Below, piece after piece: positions 18,752 through 55,847 of a DNA stretch of 64,000 bases (the stretch's first letter is position 1; the number at the start of each line of letters is the position of its first letter). The translations under genes were made by a program, and so were the position numbers. Below the pieces are notes generated by a model. It made no database searches. It saw nothing but the letters and a program-made list of their open reading frames with translations, and was not told where the DNA came from. Source of the stretch: an uncultured Acidobacteriota bacterium. Lineage in GTDB: Bacteria > Acidobacteriota > JAQAZP01. The stretch spans positions 1,184,001-1,248,000 of the forward strand of contig CAWIIB010000001.1 of NCBI GenBank assembly GCA_963836075.1. The letters run 5' to 3'.

Positions 18752-21700
18752 TCATGGAGCGCCGAGGAGGATGAAGGCCGCCCAGTAGTGGGGATCCGAG
18801 TATGGATGGGATGGGGGAGCCGCAGCCTGTGCGGCTCCTTCTTGCGGGGAGCGAACGATCTCATCGTCATCTCCTGATTCAGGCTGATGGAGCTGATGCA
18901 GTTTTTGAAAAGTCAATTCCCGTAACCATTTCTTTGCCTCATGAAGCGCCTCGGCCCTGGGCATCGGCAACCCAGGGTCGTAAGTATGAACTCCCACGTG
19001 CCGTATATCGCTAAAAGCCCCAAGGCAGTTCTCATAGAAGCGGGACATCAGCAGCCGGGTGGCCCGGTCGTCCACCGGCCAGAGGCTGAGCAGCAGGCTG
19101 CGAGCCCCGGCGACGAACAGTGCCTGGGAGAACCCCAGATACCCCTCCCCTCCCGATTCCACACCGAGGGCCGTATCACAGCCGCTGAACACCACCAGGT
19201 CTGCGTTGAGCCTCCAGGTCCGTACGATCTGCTCACCGGTCAATCGCCCATCGTATACTTCCTTTTGCTGAAGCACCCGCTCGGTGGAATCGGGCAGCTG
19301 ATCCCGGGACAGGATCAGTGCCGACCGCATGGCCATGCGGTCGTCCATCACAGCGTGGGTGGCGAAGTGGAGGTAATTGAATTTTCGAAGTTCTCCCGAG
19401 GACGCCAGCCGCTCCAACCGTTGTTCACTTGCCTCGGATCCGAGCAGGATCAGCTGAGAATTGTCATTATCAGTGGTCTTGAATAGGCGACCGATGGCCT
19501 GCACTTCGTGACGGCTCTGGGGCAGCGGGCAATAGGACGGCCCCCTGATCCGACCGGCGATCTCTTCAAGTGCCGATTCACCTCCTGCCAACGGGGAAGA
19601 ATCTCTTGTTCCGCCCCCCTTCCTGAACACCGGATCCCCCAGCGCGAGCAGCGATGTGGCCCGTTTTCGCTCCGACGGATCACCCGGGTGTCCACCCCGC
19701 GTGCCAAGCCAGGCAAACATGGTCCCTGAGGGTGCGTAGCTCACCGTATAACCAGCAGCGAGGGTTTCCACCGGGACCCCGGCCATCTGGCCGGCCGGCA
19801 GTACGACAAGTTGCCGAACATCGCGCAGCAATTTCTCGACGGGCTGAAAACGCTGGAGATAGAGACGCTGGCAGAGTGCCGCACGCCCCCGGTCCGATCC
19901 GCCGAGAGCCCGGGTTCGCAGAGTTTCCCTGACACGGCCGGCCAGATCACGATCCGCCGCTGTCCAGGCGCCCCCCTCTCCGGTGCCGGGCAGTTCAATC
20001 CAAACGGGTTCTCCCCCGCTTCTGACAACACAGGCCCAGTGGGATTCCAGCGGCTGTCCCAGAGGCTCTGTTTCCACATCCAGCCATCCCACGATGGCGG
20101 CATCGGGCTCCAGGTGCGACTGGATCCGCGGCAGGCTGAGCACGTCGCCGGCGGCCACACCGTATTTCCTGGAGATTTCAACTTCGAACGAGGCCAGATC
20201 CACTTGCAGGGCAACCCGTTCCCTTGACAATCGTGACAATTCGGTGGAGTCTCCCTCCGCGCCGTCCAGTGCACGGCGCAGTGCGCTCATCTGCTCGTCA
20301 ATTCCGATGAGCCGGGAGTTGAGTTCGGTCTCCTGCTGACGTTCACCGGACGTCAACGGCCGGACGTGCCGGGCGGACAGCGTGTCGAGAAGCCCGCGCG
20401 CCAGATTTGTTTCCATCTGCTGCCAGGCCTCGCACGGCCGCCCGGCCCCGGCCAGACAGGCGGCCAGTGCCGGGAGCGGGGACCGCCGGGCCGTGAAGTG
20501 GACCCGGTCCAGCCCGCCGAGGCCGGCTCGCAGACGTGCGGAATCAAAACCCGCCGCAGCGTCACGCCAGAACGTCTCGGCTTCGGTCTTTTGTCCCAGG
20601 AGCGTTTTGATCAGGGCCAGCGCGCTGAGGCTGTCCACAACATCCGGATGCTGGGGCCCGAGAATCCGTCGCTGTCCCTCCAGCGCCCGACGGTACATGG
20701 TCTCCGCCTCGGCCAGCCGGCCCTGCCCCAGACGCAGTCGGCCCAGCCGGGCCACCGTCTGCAAGGCTTCGCGGTTACCTTTCAACGGCGACGCATCATA
20801 GTGGTCTCGTGTTTCGAGCAGCAGCGTTTCAGCCTCGGCATATCTTGCCTGCTTCATCAGCAGCTCAGCCAGGCCGCTGGCAACCCTCAGCGTCTTCTGG
20901 CTGTCCGCGCCCATCAGGGGTTCGATCCCGGCCAGAGCTTCGCGAAAAAGCGTTTCCGACTGGTCGAACCGGCCCAGTTCCAACATCAATCTGGCCAGGT
21001 AGAAGCTGTAATAGTGGGCGTATACGTCGTCCGGACCGATGGTTTGGATGAATTCCTGGCGACCCTCCCTCAGGAGTTCCTCGGCTTCGATTAGCCGTCC
21101 TTGACGATAAAGCATGTCGCACACGTCGAATAGGGCGAAATGCATGAAGTAATTCATCGTGGATTTACCACTGGTGGCGCTGCCACCGGCCGCCTGTACC
21201 CGGCGGAAGCACTCGAATTCATCCAGCAGGAGGACCTCGGCCTCGGCCAGCCGGCCCTGGTCCAGGAGCACCATTCCCAGCCAGGCCATGATGTAATGTG
21301 TCTCCCAGTGGTCGGCGCCGAGGAGCTGACGAGTCGCTTCGAGACAGGTGCGGCCGATACGCTCCGCCTCATCGAGCCGGCCCATGTCCCTGAGCAGCGC
21401 GATCAGACGGGTTACGTTCCACTGTGTGTCTGAGTGGTCGTCACCAAGGACGCGACGCAGCCCGTCCTGCGCCTGCCGCAGGCACTGTTCGGCTTCCTCC
21501 ATGTAGCCGTAGTACCATAACGTGTTCCCCAGGTCGCTCCGGGCAAGCAGAGTCAGGAAGTGGTCGTCGCCGAGGATCCGCCGGTATATCTCGCATACCA
21601 TTCGTTCCCGGTCCAGTCGTGTGCTGTCCCTCCAGATGTGTTTCACACCCCGTTCCGATGCTATGGCATATGCCTCGGCCAATTCGTCCTGCTGATGCTG

Positions 21701-22063
21701 CGGCAAAGCGGCAGCGAAACGGAAATAGGCGAGACGTTTCTCGGCGTAGCGGGTTTTCCAATGAGCAGAACCCTGAACACGCTGACGGATGGCGAGGATC
21801 TCTTCGGCCGGCCGGATGGCGTCCCCGTGCACTCCCTCGAGACGCGCTGACCGGATCAATTTGGACAACTCATCGATTCGCGCCAGATCTTCTTCAGACA
21901 AGGTGGGTTCCACCCGGGAAGTGTCTTCCTCGTTGTGCGTGTCTTCTATGGCTGCCGGCACCTGTGCCGATACTTTCTCGACAGGAGCAGGAGAGACGGA
22001 CAACAACAGAGCCGAGAGGATTACCGGCGTCAAGCGAAACAATGATCGTATGATGGTGCTCAT
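18752..22063 (-). CDS. TPR-CHAT (caspase-like, clan CD) protease with N-terminal signal peptide
   Basis: MSTIIRSLFRLTPVILSALLLSVSP signal-like N-terminus. About 8 kinesin-light-chain-type TPRs (RRILGDDH..TL). CHAT dyad in LHFATHA and VFSGCDT. C-terminal PHYWAAFILLG. Confidence 0.92.
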   Translation of the reverse strand: MSTIIRSLFRLTPVILSALLLSVSPAPVEKVSAQVPAAIEDTHNEEDTSRVEPTLSEEDLARIDELSKLIRSARLEGVHGDAIRPAEEILAIRQRVQGSAHWKTRYAEKRLAYFRFAAALPQHQQDELAEAYAIASERGVKHIWRDSTRLDRERMVCEIYRRILGDDHFLTLLARSDLGNTLWYYGYMEEAEQCLRQAQDGLRRVLGDDHSDTQWNVTRLIALLRDMGRLDEAERIGRTCLEATRQLLGADHWETHYIMAWLGMVLLDQGRLAEAEVLLLDEFECFRRVQAAGGSATSGKSTMNYFMHFALFDVCDMLYRQGRLIEAEELLREGRQEFIQTIGPDDVYAHYYSFYLARLMLELGRFDQSETLFREALAGIEPLMGADSQKTLRVASGLAELLMKQARYAEAETLLLETRDHYDASPLKGNREALQTVARLGRLRLGQGRLAEAETMYRRALEGQRRILGPQHPDVVDSLSALALIKTLLGQKTEAETFWRDAAAGFDSARLRAGLGGLDRVHFTARRSPLPALAACLAGAGRPCEAWQQMETNLARGLLDTLSARHVRPLTSGERQQETELNSRLIGIDEQMSALRRALDGAEGDSTELSRLSRERVALQVDLASFEVEISRKYGVAAGDVLSLPRIQSHLEPDAAIVGWLDVETEPLGQPLESHWACVVRSGGEPVWIELPGTGEGGAWTAADRDLAGRVRETLRTRALGGSDRGRAALCQRLYLQRFQPVEKLLRDVRQLVVLPAGQMAGVPVETLAAGYTVSYAPSGTMFAWLGTRGGHPGDPSERKRATSLLALGDPVFRKGGGTRDSSPLAGGESALEEIAGRIRGPSYCPLPQSRHEVQAIGRLFKTTDNDNSQLILLGSEASEQRLERLASSGELRKFNYLHFATHAVMDDRMAMRSALILSRDQLPDSTERVLQQKEVYDGRLTGEQIVRTWRLNADLVVFSGCDTALGVESGGEGYLGFSQALFVAGARSLLLSLWPVDDRATRLLMSRFYENCLGAFSDIRHVGVHTYDPGLPMPRAEALHEAKKWLRELTFQKLHQLHQPESGDDDEIVRSPQEGAAQAAAPPSHPYSDPHYWAAFILLGAP

Positions 22064-22830
22064 GGGTTTTGAGGAACATTCCTGACGTCAAGCTTACACG
22101 TGCCGAAAGGTGGATCGCCTCTCTTCCGGTGGAGCTGCAGGAAATACATGCCGGGCTCCGAAAATCTGAGCGGCAACAGCAGGCTCAGGTCAGGTCCGAT
22201 GACCGCATCGAGCACTTCTGGCTGCCCCTGCCCGTCTGTCACAACACAATGAACATTGTCGCCGGGAAGGAACTCGGGATCGTCCAGGCGGTAGTCGATG
22301 ATGACCACCTCGCCAACCTGCAATCGTTCGACCGCCCCATCTTCCCCGGCGGAACGGCTCACCGACTGCTCAAACCCGATGAACCGCGCCGTTCCCAGCA
22401 GCTCGATCGGCGGTTCCGTCGTCACCCGGCCGGCATAGACCACCAGCATCAGCAGTGCGATTCCGGCGGCCAACGGCACATAGAGGGGAACATTCACCTG
22501 CCAGAGCCAGTCGAGCATCTTGATGGGACCCGCGCGCCCGGCACTTCTCTCAAATCCCAGCCGCCGGGCCACATCATCGACCTCCTTCACCTGCCGGCGG
22601 CGGTAGGCAACACTTAAACCACTCACCTCCTCTGATTCCGCCAGCCGTTCCAGAACCATGGCGCAGCTCGGGCAGTTGTGCAGGTGCAGTTCGAGAAGCC
22701 GCGAATCCTCCCCGCTCAGCTCACCGTCCAGGTGACCCGCCAGTTCCTCCGGGGAAGGACAGTCCCGTCGTGCACTGCGGATTCGCCGAATCTCCTCGTC
22801 GATCTCGTGGTGACTGTTGTTCATGCTCAC
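22060..22830 (-). CDS. Zinc-binding (zf-HC2/ZAS) membrane anti-sigma factor
   Basis: CPSPEEL...DGEL...HLHNCPSC (HxxxCxxC), one TM helix (VPLAAGIALLMLVVYA), beta-rich extracytoplasmic tail. 4-nt overlaps with both neighbours. Confidence 0.88.
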   Translation of the reverse strand: MSMNNSHHEIDEEIRRIRSARRDCPSPEELAGHLDGELSGEDSRLLELHLHNCPSCAMVLERLAESEEVSGLSVAYRRRQVKEVDDVARRLGFERSAGRAGPIKMLDWLWQVNVPLYVPLAAGIALLMLVVYAGRVTTEPPIELLGTARFIGFEQSVSRSAGEDGAVERLQVGEVVIIDYRLDDPEFLPGDNVHCVVTDGQGQPEVLDAVIGPDLSLLLPLRFSEPGMYFLQLHRKRGDPPFGTCKLDVRNVPQNP

Positions 22831-23381
22831 CCTTTTTTTCGCGAGAAATATGCCTTTACTTCACTTCTGCTGAGCCCCTGGCTCCCCGTCAGGATTTCAG
22901 TCAATATCTTGCGGGACTTGTTCAGACAGTAACGAACCGTACTGATCTTCAGCGCGAACAGCTCGGCAATTTCCTCGTCTTTTTTGCCCTCGAAGTAGGC
23001 CAACTCGAAGATCCCCCGGTCAGGATCAGGCAGCGGCAGCTTCCGATCCATCGACCGTTTGCGGACCAGGTCATCCTCCTGGTGGGCCGCCGTGGACACT
23101 TCCTGCTTCTCCAGTGCCGACGGATTGGCGTACTTCCACTTCACATCCCGCTGGATGTAATCGATCAGCAGATTTCGGAACGCCCGGTACAGATATTTTT
23201 CGGCCTCCTCACGACTGCCCAGTTGTCGGTCCTTTTCCAGCAACCGGGTGAACAACTCCTGGAGCAGGTCGGGGACCTTGTTCCGGTCGAACAGCGCTCC
23301 GCTGGCCCTCCGGTGGAGGGTGGATGCATGCTCGTGGTAGAGCCACTCCACGGTCTTCTTCCAGTTCATATAACCGGCCAT
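22827..23381 (-). CDS. ECF (sigma-70 family) RNA polymerase sigma factor
   Basis: Region 2 DLLQELF...YLYRAFRNLLIDYIQR; region 4 IFELAYFEGKKDEEIAELFALKISTVRYCL. Start is ATG 23381 or 23369. Confidence 0.9.
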   Translation of the reverse strand: MAGYMNWKKTVEWLYHEHASTLHRRASGALFDRNKVPDLLQELFTRLLEKDRQLGSREEAEKYLYRAFRNLLIDYIQRDVKWKYANPSALEKQEVSTAAHQEDDLVRKRSMDRKLPLPDPDRGIFELAYFEGKKDEEIAELFALKISTVRYCLNKSRKILTEILTGSQGLSRSEVKAYFSRKKG

Positions 23382-23561
23382 CGGCAAAAAATGTGAAATA
23401 TGTGGTTGCTGGGGGATTCCACCACCCACTCTAGCAAAATTTCTTCCAATTTTCACAATTTTTCATTCTTCACGGTTATACCCCACGGCGGGGGAAGTGC
23501 TGCAGCCTCCCCTTACGGCTTTTTTCCCTCAATCTCTTTTGACTCTAAGGAGGAAGCTGAC

Positions 23562-25292
23562 ATGAAATCTCAAATGTTTATTTTTGTGATTGCCCTCTGC
23601 CTAGCTGTCACCACAGCCACCGCCACCGAGGTGGGTCCCGGTCCGGTCTCCGGTGAGTGGGACGCTTTGGGAAACCCTTACAACATAAACGGGCAAATCA
23701 CCGTGCCTGCAGGCGAATGCCTGACCATCGACGAGGGTGTTGAGGTTATTTTCCAGGGACACCACAAGCTGATCGTCTATGGCTGCATGGAGGCGGTGGG
23801 AACGGAAGCCTCGCCCATTCTGTTCACTGCAGCGAACACCCTTGATGGCTGGCACGGCATCCGGTTCATCGACGCTTCGGACAACAGCCATCTGGCACAC
23901 TGCATCATCGAGTACGGCCGTGGCCTGGGGATAGATATCAATGATCCCGACGGCTGGGGCGGCGGCCTCCTTTGCGATAACACCAGCCCGGTGATCAAAC
24001 ACTGCACGTTCAGAGATAATTCCACCAACTGGATCGGTGGCGGGATCATGTGTCATGCCTCGAGCTCTCCGACAATCGAGCATTGCCACATCAGCGGAAA
24101 TTTCGCCGGCAACTGGGGCGGGGGTGTGGCCGGTCTTGCCGCGGGTCATCTGATCGTCCGCAACTGTACAATATCTGGAAATACCGCGGGGGAAGATGGC
24201 GGGGGGATCGCCGGTGAACAAATTACCCTGACTATCACGGACAACGACATCTCAGGCAATAAGGCCCTGAACAACAATGGCGGGGGGATCTGCTCCTACG
24301 GCGGCTGCACGGGCTCGATCAAGGACAATGTCATTTTGGGGAATCATGCTGAGGTGGGTGGTGGTGGGATGATAATCTGGTACTGGAGTTCATTCGACCT
24401 GACGAACAATCTCGTTTACAAGAACACTGCCGGCGGTTACGGCGCTGGGATCTGTTGTTTCGATCATGCCTCCGCGACCATCACCAACTCAACCGTTTGC
24501 GGAAACATATCCAACGATCTGGGTGGCGGGCTCTCCTGCGAAACCAATTCGTCCATGACTGTCGTTAACTCAATCCTGTGGAACAATACGGCAGACACGT
24601 CATCCGACGAGATTCTGGTCGGCTACACGGTGAATCCATCCACGGTCACCATCAGCTACTCTGACGTGAGGGGGGGGCAGACCCATGTGGATGTCTGGCC
24701 CGGGAGCACACTCAATTGGGGCAGTGGCATGATCGATGAGGACCCTCTTTTCTTTGATCCGAACGTTGGAGATTATCACCTCTGCCAGGATCCCTGCCAG
24801 CCGGGAGTAGTCAACCCGTGTGTGGACGCAGGCGATCCGGTGAGTTCGATCATCGATTGGACAACGCGCACCGACTGTCATGCCGATGAGGCTGATGTTG
24901 ACATGGGGTATCACTATCCATTCCCGGAAACCGTCATCGCGGACCTGAACTGCGTCCCGGATGCGGGCGTTTTGCCCTTCACCTCAATGTTCAGCGTAGT
25001 GCTGGGCAATTCCCTGGCGCACCACCGGACAGTGGCTGGTCGAATAGACGTGAGTCTTGCCGGCGGGGCAAACTTTGCCAACTGGCGCGCGGGCTTCTCG
25101 AACCTCGGGCCCGGCGAGACGTTCACCACATCCTGGCAGCAGGTGCTTCCTGCGCTGGATCGCCTGGTGGGATTGAACCTCTTCGAACTTCATGCCGAGG
25201 ACGTTACACCGCCACCGTACAACCAGCCGCCCTACCTGCCCTCGGGAGCAACAGTCACCGCAGCCTGCTCGGTAACGGGTCTGGCACCATAA
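23562..25292 (+). CDS. Secreted right-handed parallel beta-helix protein ending in the shared ~120-aa C-terminal domain
   Basis: AAGGAGG RBS before ATG 23562; signal peptide ...AVTTATA|T; repeated GGG(I/V)...ISGN.A beta-helix rungs; DPLF...DYHL...PCVDAG...DMG segment. Confidence 0.9.
   Translation: MKSQMFIFVIALCLAVTTATATEVGPGPVSGEWDALGNPYNINGQITVPAGECLTIDEGVEVIFQGHHKLIVYGCMEAVGTEASPILFTAANTLDGWHGIRFIDASDNSHLAHCIIEYGRGLGIDINDPDGWGGGLLCDNTSPVIKHCTFRDNSTNWIGGGIMCHASSSPTIEHCHISGNFAGNWGGGVAGLAAGHLIVRNCTISGNTAGEDGGGIAGEQITLTITDNDISGNKALNNNGGGICSYGGCTGSIKDNVILGNHAEVGGGGMIIWYWSSFDLTNNLVYKNTAGGYGAGICCFDHASATITNSTVCGNISNDLGGGLSCETNSSMTVVNSILWNNTADTSSDEILVGYTVNPSTVTISYSDVRGGQTHVDVWPGSTLNWGSGMIDEDPLFFDPNVGDYHLCQDPCQPGVVNPCVDAGDPVSSIIDWTTRTDCHADEADVDMGYHYPFPETVIADLNCVPDAGVLPFTSMFSVVLGNSLAHHRTVAGRIDVSLAGGANFANWRAGFSNLGPGETFTTSWQQVLPALDRLVGLNLFELHAEDVTPPPYNQPPYLPSGATVTAACSVTGLAP
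24930..25292 (+). other. Shared C-terminal domain, copy A (TVIADLNC...NWRAG...DVTPPPYNQPPY...GLAP*)
   Basis: Gapless manual alignment to the S8 protease C-terminus gives 59/120 identical residues. Confidence 0.9.
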
Positions 25293-25309
25293 ATCAAATC
25301 TGACATATC

Positions 25310-25341
25310 TGGGTGAGCGGCCGTTTGGAGTCGCTCACCCA
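25310..25341 (+). terminator. Stem-loop after the beta-helix gene
   Basis: TGGGTGAGCG...CGCTCACCCA inverted repeat 17 nt after the stop; no clear U-tract. Confidence 0.5.
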
Positions 25342-25485
25342 CGCCTTCCACCTAAATTTCTGCACTCATCCCGGTGCTGACAATCGGTGGTGAACCCCAA
25401 TCCTGACTTCATGGTATACATCCAGTGGCAGGCCCAGCGGAGCTATTTCTTCGGAGTGAAGATCAAGTTCTGACCTGAGTGGGGC

Positions 25486-26100
25486 TCACACCCGCATGGC
25501 AATGGTCAGCCCGTCCAGTTCCGGTGAGTGGAGCGGGAGCCGTGCCAGGAGATGCACGGCCCGCCAGGCGTCCGATGCCTCAACCGCATCGATGAAGGTC
25601 TCGGCGCCGGCAAAGCCCGTGTTGTCGGCCACCAGCAGGCCGCCGGGGGCCAGCAGGCGCTCGCAATGGGGAAGGGCCCGCACGTAGTCCTCCTTCTCGA
25701 TGTCGAGGAAGACCATGCGGCAGTGTTTGTCCAGCCCGGCGAGGATCTCGAAGGCGTCGCCGGTCAGCACCTCGGCATGGTTCGCCGCCCCGGAGCGCCG
25801 CAGCGTCTCCCGGGCCCGCTCGGCCAGGGCCGGGTCAAACTCCAGGGTCAGCAACCGGCCGCCGGTTTCGGCACAGGCCCGGGCGAGATAGACAGCCGAG
25901 TATCCGGTGGCCGTGCCCAGTTCCACCACCAGTCCGGGGCCGGCCAGCCGGGCCAGGATGCCCAGCAACTCGCCCACCACCGGACCGACAATGGGCACAT
26001 TGTCCCGCTCGGCCTCGGCTTCCAGCTCGAGCAGCAGATCGTCCCGCGGCGGCAGCAGCCGTCGGAAGTGCTCTTCCAGGTTGGGAATCATGTTTGACAT
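25486..26100 (-). CDS. O-methyltransferase (family 3, COMT/CCoAOMT-like)
   Basis: PIVGPVVG.LL, VELGTATGYS, FLDIEKEDY, ADN. Confidence 0.9.
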   Translation of the reverse strand: MSNMIPNLEEHFRRLLPPRDDLLLELEAEAERDNVPIVGPVVGELLGILARLAGPGLVVELGTATGYSAVYLARACAETGGRLLTLEFDPALAERARETLRRSGAANHAEVLTGDAFEILAGLDKHCRMVFLDIEKEDYVRALPHCERLLAPGGLLVADNTGFAGAETFIDAVEASDAWRAVHLLARLPLHSPELDGLTIAMRV

Positions 26101-26121
26101 CTATTGAGCACAACATCCGTT

Positions 26122-26154
26122 CAACGGCCCGGGCATCTGCCCGGGCCGTTGTTT
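26122..26154. terminator. Perfect inverted repeat between the S8 protease and the methyltransferase
   Basis: CAACGGCCCGGGCA-TC-TGCCCGGGCCGTTG, followed by TTT on the + strand; lies just downstream of the S8 stop on the - strand. Confidence 0.6.
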
Positions 26155-26169
26155 ATCGCCGGTGAACCC

Positions 26170-26532
26170 TTATGGCGTCAGACCCACAACCGTGAAGCTG
26201 TCGCTGTCGCTATCGCCCGAGGGGGCGTACGGCGGCTGGTTGAACGGCGCCGGGGTCACGTCCTGGCCGATAAGGGTGAAGACGTTGGAACCCACCAGCG
26301 TGCCCAGGCCGGGCAGACTCTGATTCCAGACCTTGGTAAACACCTCTGCGGGGCTGAGGTTGGTCCAACCGGCCCGCCAGTTGCCGTACGGCGTGCCGTT
26401 GGCGATCACCACGTCGATCCGGGCGGCGGCCCGGCGGTTCTCGCTGGTCAGGTTAATCAACTGTGTCGTGAACTGGGTGACGAACGGGAGTGTGCCGGTG
26501 TCGGGCGCAGCGTTGATGGCCACCTGCACCGT
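26170..26532 (-). other. Shared C-terminal domain, copy B (TVQVAIN...NWRAG...DVTPAPFNQPPY...GLTP*)
   Basis: Same length (120 aa) as copy A, with 59 identities. Confidence 0.9.
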
Positions 26533-51300: not shown

Positions 51301-51487
51301 CGCCGGACTCCTTTTCGCTAAAGGTCGCAATTTCCCTCAGGGGGCAATTCCCGATTGAAAGTCGTTCCCGGGAATGGTAGTGTACTTGCGCCTTGTTGCA
51401 GGCGAGGAGCACTACCACAGGCCCGCCACCCGGCACAGCTGAATGAACTGCAACGAGACCCGGATCAGATCACCTGGAGGTTCTCCC

Positions 51488-53671
51488 GTGAGTGTCCCCA
51501 AGCGGATTGTCCTTACCACCGGCTGTATTCTGTTCAGCCTGATGCTGGCCGCCACCGGGACATCCTTTGCCCAGCGGGCCGAACCGATCATCATCGACCA
51601 TAGCTGTACCGTCCTCGAGGATATTCCAGAGGAATGGGTTATCGAGGCCAAAGACCAGCTGCGAATTTGCTACGGTCACACTTCACACGGAAGCCAGCCC
51701 ATTTCCGGAATGCAAGTACTGATGGACGATCCCGGTTACCAGGGCCTCTACGATTTCAACTATGACGGAGCCGTGGAACCAGGAGTGCTCTCCCTCCAAG
51801 ACACCGTACCCGAAGGTGACCTGGGAAATCCGGATTACACCACCTGGGCCGCGCGTACGCGCAGCCACCTCGACGGTCCGGGAAGCGACCGCAACGTGGT
51901 GATCTGGTCCTGGTGCGGCCAGGTCGACACCACGTCCGAGAACATCGATATCTACCTCGGTCTGATGAATCAACTGGAGGCAGATTATCCTGATGTTTCC
52001 TTCGTCTACATGACCGGCCATCTCAACGGCACCGGCGAAACGGGCAATGTCAACCTGCGGAATAACCAGATCCGGGCCTTCTGCATCGCCAACAACAAAA
52101 CTCTCTACGATTTCGCCGATATCGAGAGCTACGACCCGGATGGTAACTATTTCCTCGACCAGGGCGCTGATGATGAATGCAACTACGACGGCGGCAACTG
52201 GGCCGATGAATGGTGCGACTCACATCCCGGCAGTCCGCTCTGTATTGATTGTACCTGTGCCCACTCCCGGCCGCTGAACTGCAATCTCAAGGCCCGGGCC
52301 TTCTGGCGGCTCCTGGCAGAGATCGCCGGCATGGGGACAAAGCCGGACGAATACAGCATCGCCTTCTCCCCGTCCAGCCTCGTCTTCACCGCGCTGGAGG
52401 GCGGATCGCCTCCGGCGGCGCAAACCCTGGAGATCTGGCGCGAAGGGGACGGCACGCTGGACTGGACCGCCGCTGAGAGCACCGGCTGGCTCTCCCTGTC
52501 ACCCGCTTCGGGCAGTTCCACCGGTGAACATGATCCGGTGACTGTGGCAGTGGACGCCGCCGGCCTGCAGACCGGCACCTTCAATGCCACCATCACCATC
52601 TCCGATCCCGGTGCGCTGAACTCACCGCAAACCGTGCCGGTGAGCCTCACGGTCACCAGCGCCCAGACCTTCATCACGGCAGGCCCGGGCCCGGACTACG
52701 GCAACTCGCCGGAGGTGCGCGTCTTCCCACCGGAACAGGACAGCGGGCCGATCTATACCTTTGCCGCATACGGATCCCCGCACTACGGGGTGAACGTCAG
52801 CTGCGGCCGGGTGGCCGGCGGCAGCGGCGACGTGATCCTCACCGGCGCCGGACCGGGGGACATCTATGGACCCCACGTGCGGGGCTTCAGTGCGGACGGT
52901 ACACCGGTGGGCGGGCTGAGCTTCCTGGCCTATGGCACCAACAAGTTCGGGGTCAACGTGGCGGCCGGCGACCTGGACGCTGACGGCTATGACGAGATCA
53001 TCACCGGCGCAGGACCGGGCGCCGTCTTCGGCCCCCATGTCCGGGCCTTCGATTTCGACGGCGCACCGCCGGTGAGCCCGGTGGCCGGAGTGAGCTACTT
53101 CGCCTACGGCACACTGAAATACGGGGTCAATATCGCCGCCGGCGACCTGGACGGCGACGGTTATGACGAGATCGTCACCGGCGCTGGGCCGGGTGCCGTC
53201 TTTGGCCCCCACGTCCGGGGCTGGAACGTGGACGGCGGGGCGGCGACACCCATCCCCGGGGTCAGCTGGTTTGCCTACGGCACCTTGAAATACGGGGTCC
53301 ATGTGGCAGCCGGCGACCTGGACGGCGACGGACTGGCCGAGATCGTCACCGCCCCGGGCCCCTCTTCCCTCTTCGGCGCCCATGTGCGCGGCTGGAACGT
53401 GGACGGCACGGTGAGCCCCATGCCCGGCTTCAGCTTCTTCGCCTGGCCGGCAAGCCAGTCCACTTATGGCGCCCGGATCTTTGCCGGCGCCGACCTCAAC
53501 GATGACGGACGGGACGACCTGGTGGCGGGTGCCGGTCCGGACCCGGCGGCCGGAACACCGGTGCAGGTCTACCGCTACCTCGGCGGCACGGCCGAGCTCT
53601 GGTTCTCCCTGGAGGCCTTCCCCGCCGGCACCACCAGCGGCACCAGCGTTGCCGGAGGCGATCTGGGCTAG
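51488..53671 (+). CDS. Secreted protein: SGNH-like alpha/beta domain + BACON-like Ig domain + FG-GAP-like repeat block
   Basis: GTG 51488 with GGAGG RBS; signal peptide ...TSFA|Q; YGHTSHGSQ/WSWCG/DFADIES; WLSLSPASG; GDLDGDGYDEIVTG repeats. Confidence 0.8.
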   Translation: MSVPKRIVLTTGCILFSLMLAATGTSFAQRAEPIIIDHSCTVLEDIPEEWVIEAKDQLRICYGHTSHGSQPISGMQVLMDDPGYQGLYDFNYDGAVEPGVLSLQDTVPEGDLGNPDYTTWAARTRSHLDGPGSDRNVVIWSWCGQVDTTSENIDIYLGLMNQLEADYPDVSFVYMTGHLNGTGETGNVNLRNNQIRAFCIANNKTLYDFADIESYDPDGNYFLDQGADDECNYDGGNWADEWCDSHPGSPLCIDCTCAHSRPLNCNLKARAFWRLLAEIAGMGTKPDEYSIAFSPSSLVFTALEGGSPPAAQTLEIWREGDGTLDWTAAESTGWLSLSPASGSSTGEHDPVTVAVDAAGLQTGTFNATITISDPGALNSPQTVPVSLTVTSAQTFITAGPGPDYGNSPEVRVFPPEQDSGPIYTFAAYGSPHYGVNVSCGRVAGGSGDVILTGAGPGDIYGPHVRGFSADGTPVGGLSFLAYGTNKFGVNVAAGDLDADGYDEIITGAGPGAVFGPHVRAFDFDGAPPVSPVAGVSYFAYGTLKYGVNIAAGDLDGDGYDEIVTGAGPGAVFGPHVRGWNVDGGAATPIPGVSWFAYGTLKYGVHVAAGDLDGDGLAEIVTAPGPSSLFGAHVRGWNVDGTVSPMPGFSFFAWPASQSTYGARIFAGADLNDDGRDDLVAGAGPDPAAGTPVQVYRYLGGTAELWFSLEAFPAGTTSGTSVAGGDLG
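52931..53400 (+). repeat. Three tandem 57-58-aa FG-GAP/VCBS-like intragenic repeats
   Basis: YGT.K(Y/F)GV.(V/I)AAGDLD.DG..EI.T.(A/P)GP...FG.HVR units starting at 52931, 53105 and 53276. Confidence 0.85.
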
Positions 53672-55394: not shown

Positions 55395-55847
55395 ATGTCA
55401 ACCCATCTGACGAAAATCCTCGTTGTCCTGGCAATGACCATGCTCTTCGCCCCCGCGGCCCAGTCCGAAGTTCTCGGAGTTACACCCACTCTCGATCTGG
55501 AACTGACCTGCTCACCGGAGAAATTCACCCTCCCCGGCGACCTCCTGTTCAGTATCGAAGCCGTCAATATGACCGACCACCCGCGCATCTACTGGGGCCG
55601 CATAAACGTCGCCCTGGGCCAGGGACAAGTGATCCGGAACTGGCGGTTGGAGTTCGATCAGACTGTTGGAGGGCGCCAGACCTACAACAAACAGTTCAAG
55701 ATCAGGATTCCCGCCCTCCCCGGGTTTGCCGGAAACTATCGCTTCAAGTGCACCGCCATTGACATCACCCCGCCCGCGATGATCAATGGAATTCCCGCCG
55801 GCTACCGTGCCCGGAGCGAATGCATCGTGGGGATGATTCTCCCGTAG
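55395..55847 (+). CDS. Small secreted protein made only of a signal peptide and a divergent copy (C) of the shared C-terminal domain
   Basis: AAGGAG RBS; signal ...APAAQS|E; TLDLELTCSP...LP...N...R...GRINV.L..G....NWR...IPAL...G...F...DITPP...PAG...C.V...P*. Confidence 0.85.
   Translation: MSTHLTKILVVLAMTMLFAPAAQSEVLGVTPTLDLELTCSPEKFTLPGDLLFSIEAVNMTDHPRIYWGRINVALGQGQVIRNWRLEFDQTVGGRQTYNKQFKIRIPALPGFAGNYRFKCTAIDITPPAMINGIPAGYRARSECIVGMILP

Follow-up and report, generated by a model that had tools for sequence, protein, structure and literature searches.

A C-terminal domain shared by unrelated exported proteins of one Acidobacteriota class: a candidate address or anchor tag

What is the role of a domain that closes exported proteins of otherwise unrelated build? 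The question is raised by a 64,000-nucleotide stretch of the genome of an uncultured Acidobacteriota bacterium (assembly GCA_963836075.1; hereafter the window), in which a β-helix protein and an S8 protease end in the same 120 residues, designated here the tail. We lean towards the answer that the tail is a lineage-specific address (sorting) or anchor tag for Sec-exported proteins of one class. This reading is drawn from the terminal position and single copy of the tail, the Sec leaders and breadth of its cargo, its mobility between cargo, its invariant exposed loop and free end, the existence of proteins made of leader and tail only, and its presence where homologous cargo carries other tags. 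From these features we infer a localisation role, the step that the tail serves, and the existence of a dedicated partner.

The gene for the β-helix protein (label P0089; positions 23562–25292 of the window, + strand, stop codon included; 576 aa; Pfam Beta_helix and NosD), the start of which was placed at the Met preceding the leader MKSQMFIFVIALCLAVTTATA, encodes copy A of the domain (24930–25289, +) as its final 120 residues, which score 165 bits against the genome-wide profile described below. The S8 protease gene (label P0043; 26170–29268, − strand, stop codon included; 1032 aa; Pfam Peptidase_S8 and CarboxypepD_reg) encodes an exported subtilisin-type enzyme with a fervidolysin-like prodomain and CarboxypepD_reg domains, the final 120 residues of which are copy B (26173–26532, −). 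Copies A and B align without gaps with 59 of 120 residues identical (49%), and the two proteins have no Pfam domain in common outside the tail. Copy C (55488–55844, +) is divergent (32% identity to A; 93 bits against the same profile) and, together with a signal peptide, makes up the whole of a 150-aa protein (open reading frame 55395–55847, +, stop codon included) in which no Pfam or NCBIfam family was matched. The only gaps in the three-way alignment are one of a single residue and one of two residues, and a profile built from the three copies matches further copies in the same genome with E values of 1e-33 to 1e-61; the likeness of A, B, and C is far beyond chance. Hydrophobic N-terminal leaders are present in all three proteins (MKSQMFIFVIALCLAVTTATA in the β-helix protein and MRAIGIKAAIVLTLLAIGLPMGQNALAA in the S8 protease). 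An earlier note, made from the letters of the window alone, had described the shared terminal domain, the Sec signal peptides of the two large proteins, and a third copy standing alone at 55.4 kb, and the analysis bears out all three; its domain coordinates differ from ours only by counting stop codons. The motifs that it named (PD.G.LPF, RIDV, NWRAG, DVTP.P(Y/F)NQPPY.PSG, and a terminal P) recur in alignments of 30 and of 183 copies.

Occurrence of the tail in the genome and beyond

The source assembly (6.23 Mb in 10 contigs, 64% G+C) is estimated to be 94.7% complete with 4.6% contamination. A first pass with the three-copy profile gave 150 scored matches out of 267 first-look candidates, and a second-round profile of 183 copies was run against all six-frame stop-to-stop frames of at least 60 aa at an E value of 1e-3 or better. 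This second profile found 226 domain matches in 225 frames. The match stops exactly at the final residue of the frame in 198 of the 226 cases; 190 are full-length copies that end within 10 residues of the frame end, and the rest are mostly partial. The two outcomes that the earlier note had set against a sorting role, namely only a few copies genome-wide or frequent internal positions, are not what the search returned, full internal copies being confined to about 2 frames. Carriers shorter than 400 aa account for 37 of the 190, and only 6 of these 37 have a leader. For 18 of the 37, a same-strand frame of at least 150 aa ends within 150 nucleotides upstream (for example, G000:C9:226821–227393, where G000 is this genome and C1 and C9 are its contigs in genome coordinates), which suggests that these short carriers are frameshifts from sequence error, or pseudogenes.

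Export leaders were scored with a home-made heuristic that asks for an uncharged, hydrophobic window of 12 residues preceded by K or R in the first 80 codons. A Sec-like leader was found in 127 of the 153 carriers of at least 400 aa, compared with 942 of the 3546 tail-less frames of at least 400 aa, a control set that includes spurious frames and membrane proteins. Sec-type leaders are thus strongly enriched among carriers, and occurrence on cytoplasmic proteins, which the earlier note had also considered, is not the pattern. Only 3 of the 127 leader-bearing carriers have a lipobox-like motif; the signal peptides are therefore mainly of type I. The leader scan also revealed that proteins composed of a leader and the domain only exist, the 150-aa protein of the window being a candidate.

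The cargo is diverse. Single-linkage BLAST clustering divided 171 cargo parts of at least 150 aa into 46 groups, with sizes of 59, 40, 8, 8, 5, and 3, followed by 8 pairs and 32 singletons. A Pfam scan of 33 carriers from this genome revealed C25 peptidases with their propeptide, S8 peptidases, and β-helix, NosD, and PMP-repeat proteins; CotH proteins with lamin-tail domains, arylsulfotransferases, and PETase/chlorophyllase-like esterases; and FG-GAP, SBBP, BNR, LamG, BACON, and InhA-like MAM modules. Twelve of the 33 had no Pfam family at all, and no Pfam family was found in the final 120 residues of any of them. Related metagenomic carriers have precomputed Pfam accessions that we take to be those of the M28, M14, C1, FGE-sulfatase, and PQQ-propeller families. 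An exported FG-GAP/BACON protein is also encoded in the window (51443–53671, +); it belongs to a repeat family common among the carriers, yet its end is tail-less.

Similarity among the tails often crosses cargo groups. Among 150 evaluable copies (the remaining 33 of the 183 allowed no such comparison), the nearest tail sits on cargo from another BLAST group in 94 and on cargo from the same group in 56. Three pairs of adjacent genes with unrelated cargo (G000:C1:1630946–1636998, C1:1572331–1579541, and C9:2248043–2251301) have tails that are 99%, 93%, and 86% identical, respectively, which suggests that gene conversion has acted locally or that the tail alone was copied very recently. Taken together, these two observations indicate that the tail moves or homogenises independently of its cargo. 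The onset of similarity is abrupt: small residues give way to T (86%) and then V, I, or L, and no low-complexity linker was found before the domain.

The domain is present in 3 of 3 genomes of one class and in 0 of 298 others in a phylum sample of 301 genomes including the source genome. The class-level search covered exactly these three genomes, so the lineage is to be understood as a class with three species representatives; the two other domain-bearing genomes share the genus of the source genome. First-look candidates in the three positive genomes numbered 297, 157, and 185 in the phylum-wide search, and all of the 14 scored per genome matched. When one genome for each of 185,579 species was scanned for the pattern, only two other assemblies came up, with 131 confirmed stretches. 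Among 1,835,955,588 protein representatives, 499 match at an E value of 1e-3, 459 at 1e-10, and 347 at 1e-30, and this small fall in the counts indicates that the family is sharply bounded. The terminal position also holds there: among the 150 matches listed, 142 stop no more than 7 residues short of the protein end, 3 have a single internal copy, and 5, in which two stretches match and 121–124 residues follow the best one, look like tandem copies.

Predicted fold and conserved loop

A model computed with AlphaFold2 from the 30-copy alignment, with copy A as its first row, has a predicted local distance difference test score (pLDDT) of 95.1 and a predicted template modeling score (pTM) of 0.84. 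It comprises eight strands and an unstructured stretch at residues 92–107, that is to say, the tail is predicted to be a self-folding eight-stranded Ig/CARDB-like β-sandwich. Structural comparison placed the FnIII domains of RbmA (PDB 4BE5 and 4KKP) among the best matches, with a Foldseek TM-score of 0.73 and a VIA-align Z score of 11.6 (root mean square deviation [rmsd] of 2.3 over 106 residues). The other VIA-align matches included the Ig-like domain of AlkC (Z 11.2), transglutaminase β-barrel domains (Z 10.4–10.9), and the CARDB domain 3IDU (Z 10.1, rmsd of 2.4 over 99 residues), the last with a score that many Ig-like domains equal; glycosidase accessory Ig-like domains and complement MG domains were also matched. 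The fold matches have 7–18% sequence identity and no clear score gap to lower rows. They identify a common Ig/FnIII-like fold and carry no information on function.

No described family accounts for the domain. Pfam and NCBIfam returned nothing on whole proteins or isolated tails for this region, a Pfam search of 30 isolated copies at E values up to 10 gave three chance-level rows only, and a sequence search of the PDB gave only chance-level AfaD rows (E 0.6–0.7); none of these libraries holds a confident match. CARDB and RbmA gave the best matches by fold, and CARDB-like clusters also came up in a protein-language-model atlas, weakly (score 0.90) and with recognition below the mark of the tool. 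The tail has 10–14% sequence identity to these domains, 0 of 30 copies match the CARDB model (PF07705) at E values up to 10, and CARDB and RbmA FnIII domains are not known to be confined to the C-terminus. The likeness to CARDB, one of the identities that the earlier note had thought of, is at most one of fold or feature. No description of the domain surfaced in what full-text searches on Acidobacteriota, C-terminal sorting, type IX secretion, and lineage-specific signals returned. The domain is absent from every family library and PDB sequence set searched.

Conservation is concentrated outside the predicted strands. Across the 183 copies, mean column entropy is 0.78 bits at residues 92–107, compared with 1.99 bits in the strands and 1.47 bits over all non-strand positions, so the best-conserved element, above the strands, is the unstructured loop DVTPAPYNQPP[YF]xPxGD. 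The final residue is Pro in 163 of the 190 full-length terminal copies, and the final two are AP in 111. The chain ends in a β-strand followed by ..AP and has no hydrophobic C-terminal helix, in agreement with the earlier observation that a transmembrane helix and a basic tail are lacking; nor did any NCBIfam sorting-signal model match. The earlier note had further proposed a disulfide on the grounds that two cysteines come and go together. Of the 183 copies, which are paralogues and hence not independent counts, 126 have both Cys8 (first strand) and Cys113 (last strand) and 26 have neither; this pairing stands statistically, but it is not absolute, with one cysteine only in 31 copies. A Cys8–Cys113 disulfide is plausible from the sequences for most copies and is not universal.

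These features bear on two explanations other than an address tag. The tail could be a substrate- or matrix-binding module, similar to a carbohydrate-binding module or to RbmA, that tethers enzymes to detritus, polysaccharide, or minerals after release. The best fold matches (RbmA, CARDB, and the accessory domains of glycosidases) and the CARDB-like language-model neighbours fit this proposal, as do conserved residues rich in W, Y, N, Q, and P, the many hydrolases among the carriers, and the habitat, since the sequencing runs containing at least one fifth of the sampled words of the stretch are labelled as metagenomes of freshwater sediment, soil, salt marsh, and marine sediment. No RNA run was listed among them. 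Binding modules, however, usually vary in position, occur in tandem, and keep to one enzyme class, whereas here 190 copies are single and terminal, proteases, esterases, kinase-like proteins, and repeat proteins carry the tail alike, and the final Pro is conserved. At this position, moreover, homologous cargo elsewhere ends in tags for sorting or docking rather than in binding modules (described below). We regard a binding module as rather unlikely; even so, it would be a domain family that is new and sharply bounded, and its ligand could be tested.

The second explanation assigns the tail no addressing role and takes it for a cap that stabilises the protein or resists proteases, or for a spacer, that duplication and gene conversion spread among paralogues. 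The near-identical tails on adjacent genes speak of local homogenisation at the DNA level, and the terminal Pro could protect the chain in an organism that secretes many peptidases including carboxypeptidases. A cap would, however, need no invariant 16-residue surface loop conserved above the strands of the fold, and it would hardly be expected as a protein of leader and domain only or be kept on at least 46 unrelated cargo groups in three species. We thus consider a cap or spacer improbable.

Known sorting and docking tags on homologous cargo

Shared C-terminal domains first revealed several secretion and display systems, among them type IX secretion (T9SS), PEP-CTERM with exosortase, and the cellulosomes. 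Homologues were searched with the cargo parts alone, without the tail. For the S8 protease, the matches listed outside the lineage include rows with PF18962 (Por_Secre_tail), PF13860 (FlgD_ig), and PF00404 (Dockerin_1). Nine of the 10 S8 homologues scanned end in one of these three, and 1 has no recognised tail; the tags lie within the final 4 to about 70 residues (for example, residues 901–975 of 979 and 751–806 of 807). Among the 120 β-helix homologues listed, 26 have PF18962, 8 have PF13860, and 4 have both, and the tag was at the extreme C-terminus in 8 of the 8 scanned. The new tail occupies the place of known sorting and docking tags on homologous cargo of other phyla.

A close counterpart is the type-A C-terminal domain of T9SS (PF18962, TIGR04183), an Ig-like sandwich that is likewise terminal on unrelated Sec cargo, including C25 peptidases, S8 peptidases, and β-helix proteins, and stands at the same position on homologous cargo. 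In T9SS, PorU removes this domain and the cargo becomes attached to anionic LPS. The two differ in sequence, and no profile similarity was found: when the 183-copy alignment was compared by hhalign with 29 T9SS type-A tails, the probability was 2.5%. The tail has 120 residues, eight strands, and a long conserved loop, compared with 75 positions in the Pfam model of the T9SS tail. A genome-wide search for Por_Secre_tail gave 0 matches in all three genomes of the class and matched 4 of the 301 phylum genomes (the phylum tallies for PF18962, for the PorU-like peptidase, and for the cohesin-bearing secretin include an unpublished genome, G151); the 4 matches show that the search works and that the phylum is essentially without T9SS tags. 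Family searches for SprA, PorV, GldL, and GldM found no match in this genome; the control genome was matched for PorV only, so the negatives for SprA, GldL, and GldM are the weaker ones. A list of tail-less frames of at least 1300 aa, inspected without a family-library scan, held no obvious SprA-like barrel beyond TamB fusions.

The tail might still belong with the T9SS C-terminal domains, as a very divergent member whose type IX system is equally divergent and missed by the models. Such a relation would fit the terminal Ig-like sandwich on Sec cargo, the many gingipain-like C25 peptidases among the carriers, the T9SS tags of the homologous cargo, the presence of a PorU-like peptidase, and one apparent BNR-propeller protein with a T9SS/FlgD_ig-like tail. 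It is opposed by the profile comparison, the empty Pfam and NCBIfam searches, the missing core proteins, the rarity of PF18962 in the phylum, a PorU-like gene that is not co-distributed with the domain, and the absence of any T9SS tail from the top 50 rows of each fold search (Foldseek and VIA-align), although such an absence leaves room for likeness in fold. We consider this relation highly improbable. The propeller protein was found with a T9SS-tail profile of our own, which recovered 40 of 476 fetched proteins and one frame in this genome. This frame (G000:C9:3010893–3013568, +) is the sole one matching a T9SS type-A/FlgD_ig-style tail profile (E 4e-9, residues 803–868 of 892) and looks by eye like a BNR/sortilin-like propeller.

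Three other classes of tag can be set beside the tail. FlgD_ig domains of FCB-group candidate phyla close homologous S8 and β-helix cargo as Ig-like tails; the tail copies do not match the PF13860 model, and our profile of 8 FlgD_ig tails gave three weak matches in this genome, none on a carrier. Type I dockerins, which dock to cohesins (PF00963), are likewise terminal tags common to many enzymes, including S8 homologues; the tail differs in being all-β in the model, without sequence match, and is not a calcium-binding helical repeat. In PEP-CTERM, LPXTG, and other sortase- or exosortase-type signals, a short motif precedes a transmembrane helix at the C-terminus and a basic tail, a combination that the domain described here does not have.

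An address or anchor tag could then work as follows. Sec would take the protein, with its ordinary type-I leader, across the inner membrane, and both cargo and tail would fold. A shared partner would recognise the tail through the surface loop DVTPAPYNQPP[YF]xPxGD and the free C-terminus (..AP), and would either pass the protein over the outer membrane or hold it on the cell surface or matrix. The tail would thereby do the job of the T9SS type-A, FlgD_ig, and dockerin tails on homologous cargo while being unrelated to them in sequence. The step served may be crossing of the outer membrane or retention afterwards, and the partner may be a protein or a surface polymer; the data fit either.

Search for a partner

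The organism is diderm, with several Omp85-family proteins and two secretins. Two proteins of this genome were tried as partners and rejected. The first, a PorU-like C25 peptidase (P0360; 914 aa, with a leader and no tail), was considered as a sortase of the tail. It matches the PorU sortase model best in this genome, with 201.9 bits compared with a cut-off of 420 bits. A full-length orthologue is present in one of the two sister genomes (G026, 65% identity), whereas no orthologue was found in the other tail-bearing genome, G007, where the best matches are tail-bearing C25 cargo; homologues occur in 113 of the 301 phylum genomes. Being widespread and not found in G007, the peptidase is not a specific partner. 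Its cluster (G000:C1:1026745–1032535; locus L109:10746–16535) also encodes an archaeal-type signal peptidase I, an HprK-related-kinase-A-like P-loop protein, and a PqqD/radical-SAM/SPASM enzyme, and PorU-like peptidases of the phylum often lie inside very long frames.

The second was a cohesin-bearing secretin (834 aa; G000:C1:2169995–2172496, −; L122:8995–11496), considered as a docking site. Its C-terminal Cohesin domain scores 33.5 bits, above the cut-off, and its operon is type II/MSH-like, with an ATPase, a platform protein, PilM/N-like proteins, and pseudopilins; the second secretin of the genome belongs to a PilMNOPQ cluster. Relatives of the cohesin tail, mostly in secretin-sized frames, were found in 143 of the 301 phylum genomes, so the protein is not specific to the lineage. 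The genomes of the class have 8–13 dockerin matches of their own each, and a few more cohesin matches. A small cohesin–dockerin set thus coexists with the tail and does not explain it. A zf-HC2 protein flanks the type II/MSH-like operon.

Neighbourhoods were searched by clustering frames of at least 120 aa from 76 loci of the two sister genomes together with frames within 4 kb of the tail genes in this genome. The clusters comprised antisense artefacts, FG-GAP proteins, kinase/TPR/CHAT proteins, and transporters only, and no recurrent non-cargo gene appeared around the tail genes of the three genomes. The earlier note had proposed a lineage-specific signal with its machine encoded elsewhere. 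The lineage-specific part holds (3 of 3 genomes against 0 of 298), whereas no machine was found and the two candidates are not co-distributed with the domain.

Several findings weigh against an address or anchor tag. No partner emerged from the searches for SprA, PorV, GldL, and GldM or from the neighbourhoods; the PorU-like peptidase and the cohesin-bearing secretin failed as specific partners, and the class has dockerins and cohesins of its own. Full internal or tandem copies occur in two frames, one of which also has a second, terminal copy. The leader test is home-made and its control set imperfect. A generic Ig-like fold with conserved aromatic and polar residues suits a binding module equally well, and what we say of localisation and cleavage is drawn from sequence and a structural model. 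Against these stand the features listed at the outset, and an address or anchor tag remains the reading that we favour, with measured confidence.

A related proposal goes further: the tail would be the signal for export by an undescribed pathway, one that takes folded proteins across the outer membrane, or fixes them to it, in a diderm without T9SS. The pathway might run through a new translocon or through a type II/MSH-like secretin system, in which recognition of a folded C-terminal domain would be unusual. We hold it only tentatively and think it unlikely; if it were true, about 200 proteins, very roughly 4% of an estimated 5000 or so genes, would be routed in this way. Should the tail be a sorting signal, its partner, and possibly a new outer-membrane export or attachment route, would be there to be found in these genomes. 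The tail marks about 200 proteins in this genome and, as a sorting signal, would give a one-step readout of the exported proteome of a protein-degrading sediment lineage, in a phylum nearly devoid of T9SS tags.

Two giant Omp85 proteins of about 2180 aa are TamB–POTRA–Omp85 fusions. Both (G000:C9:2267534–2274076, +, and C9:1011957–1018484, +; loci L119 and L120) are TamB–TamA-like, with an AsmA/TamB region, POTRA repeats, and a C-terminal Omp85 barrel, and both end in an aromatic residue typical of outer-membrane barrels. Within the window, genes for a CHAT–TPR protein, a zf-HC2 anti-sigma factor, and an ECF-type sigma factor (18755–23456, −) are divergent from the tail-bearing β-helix gene.

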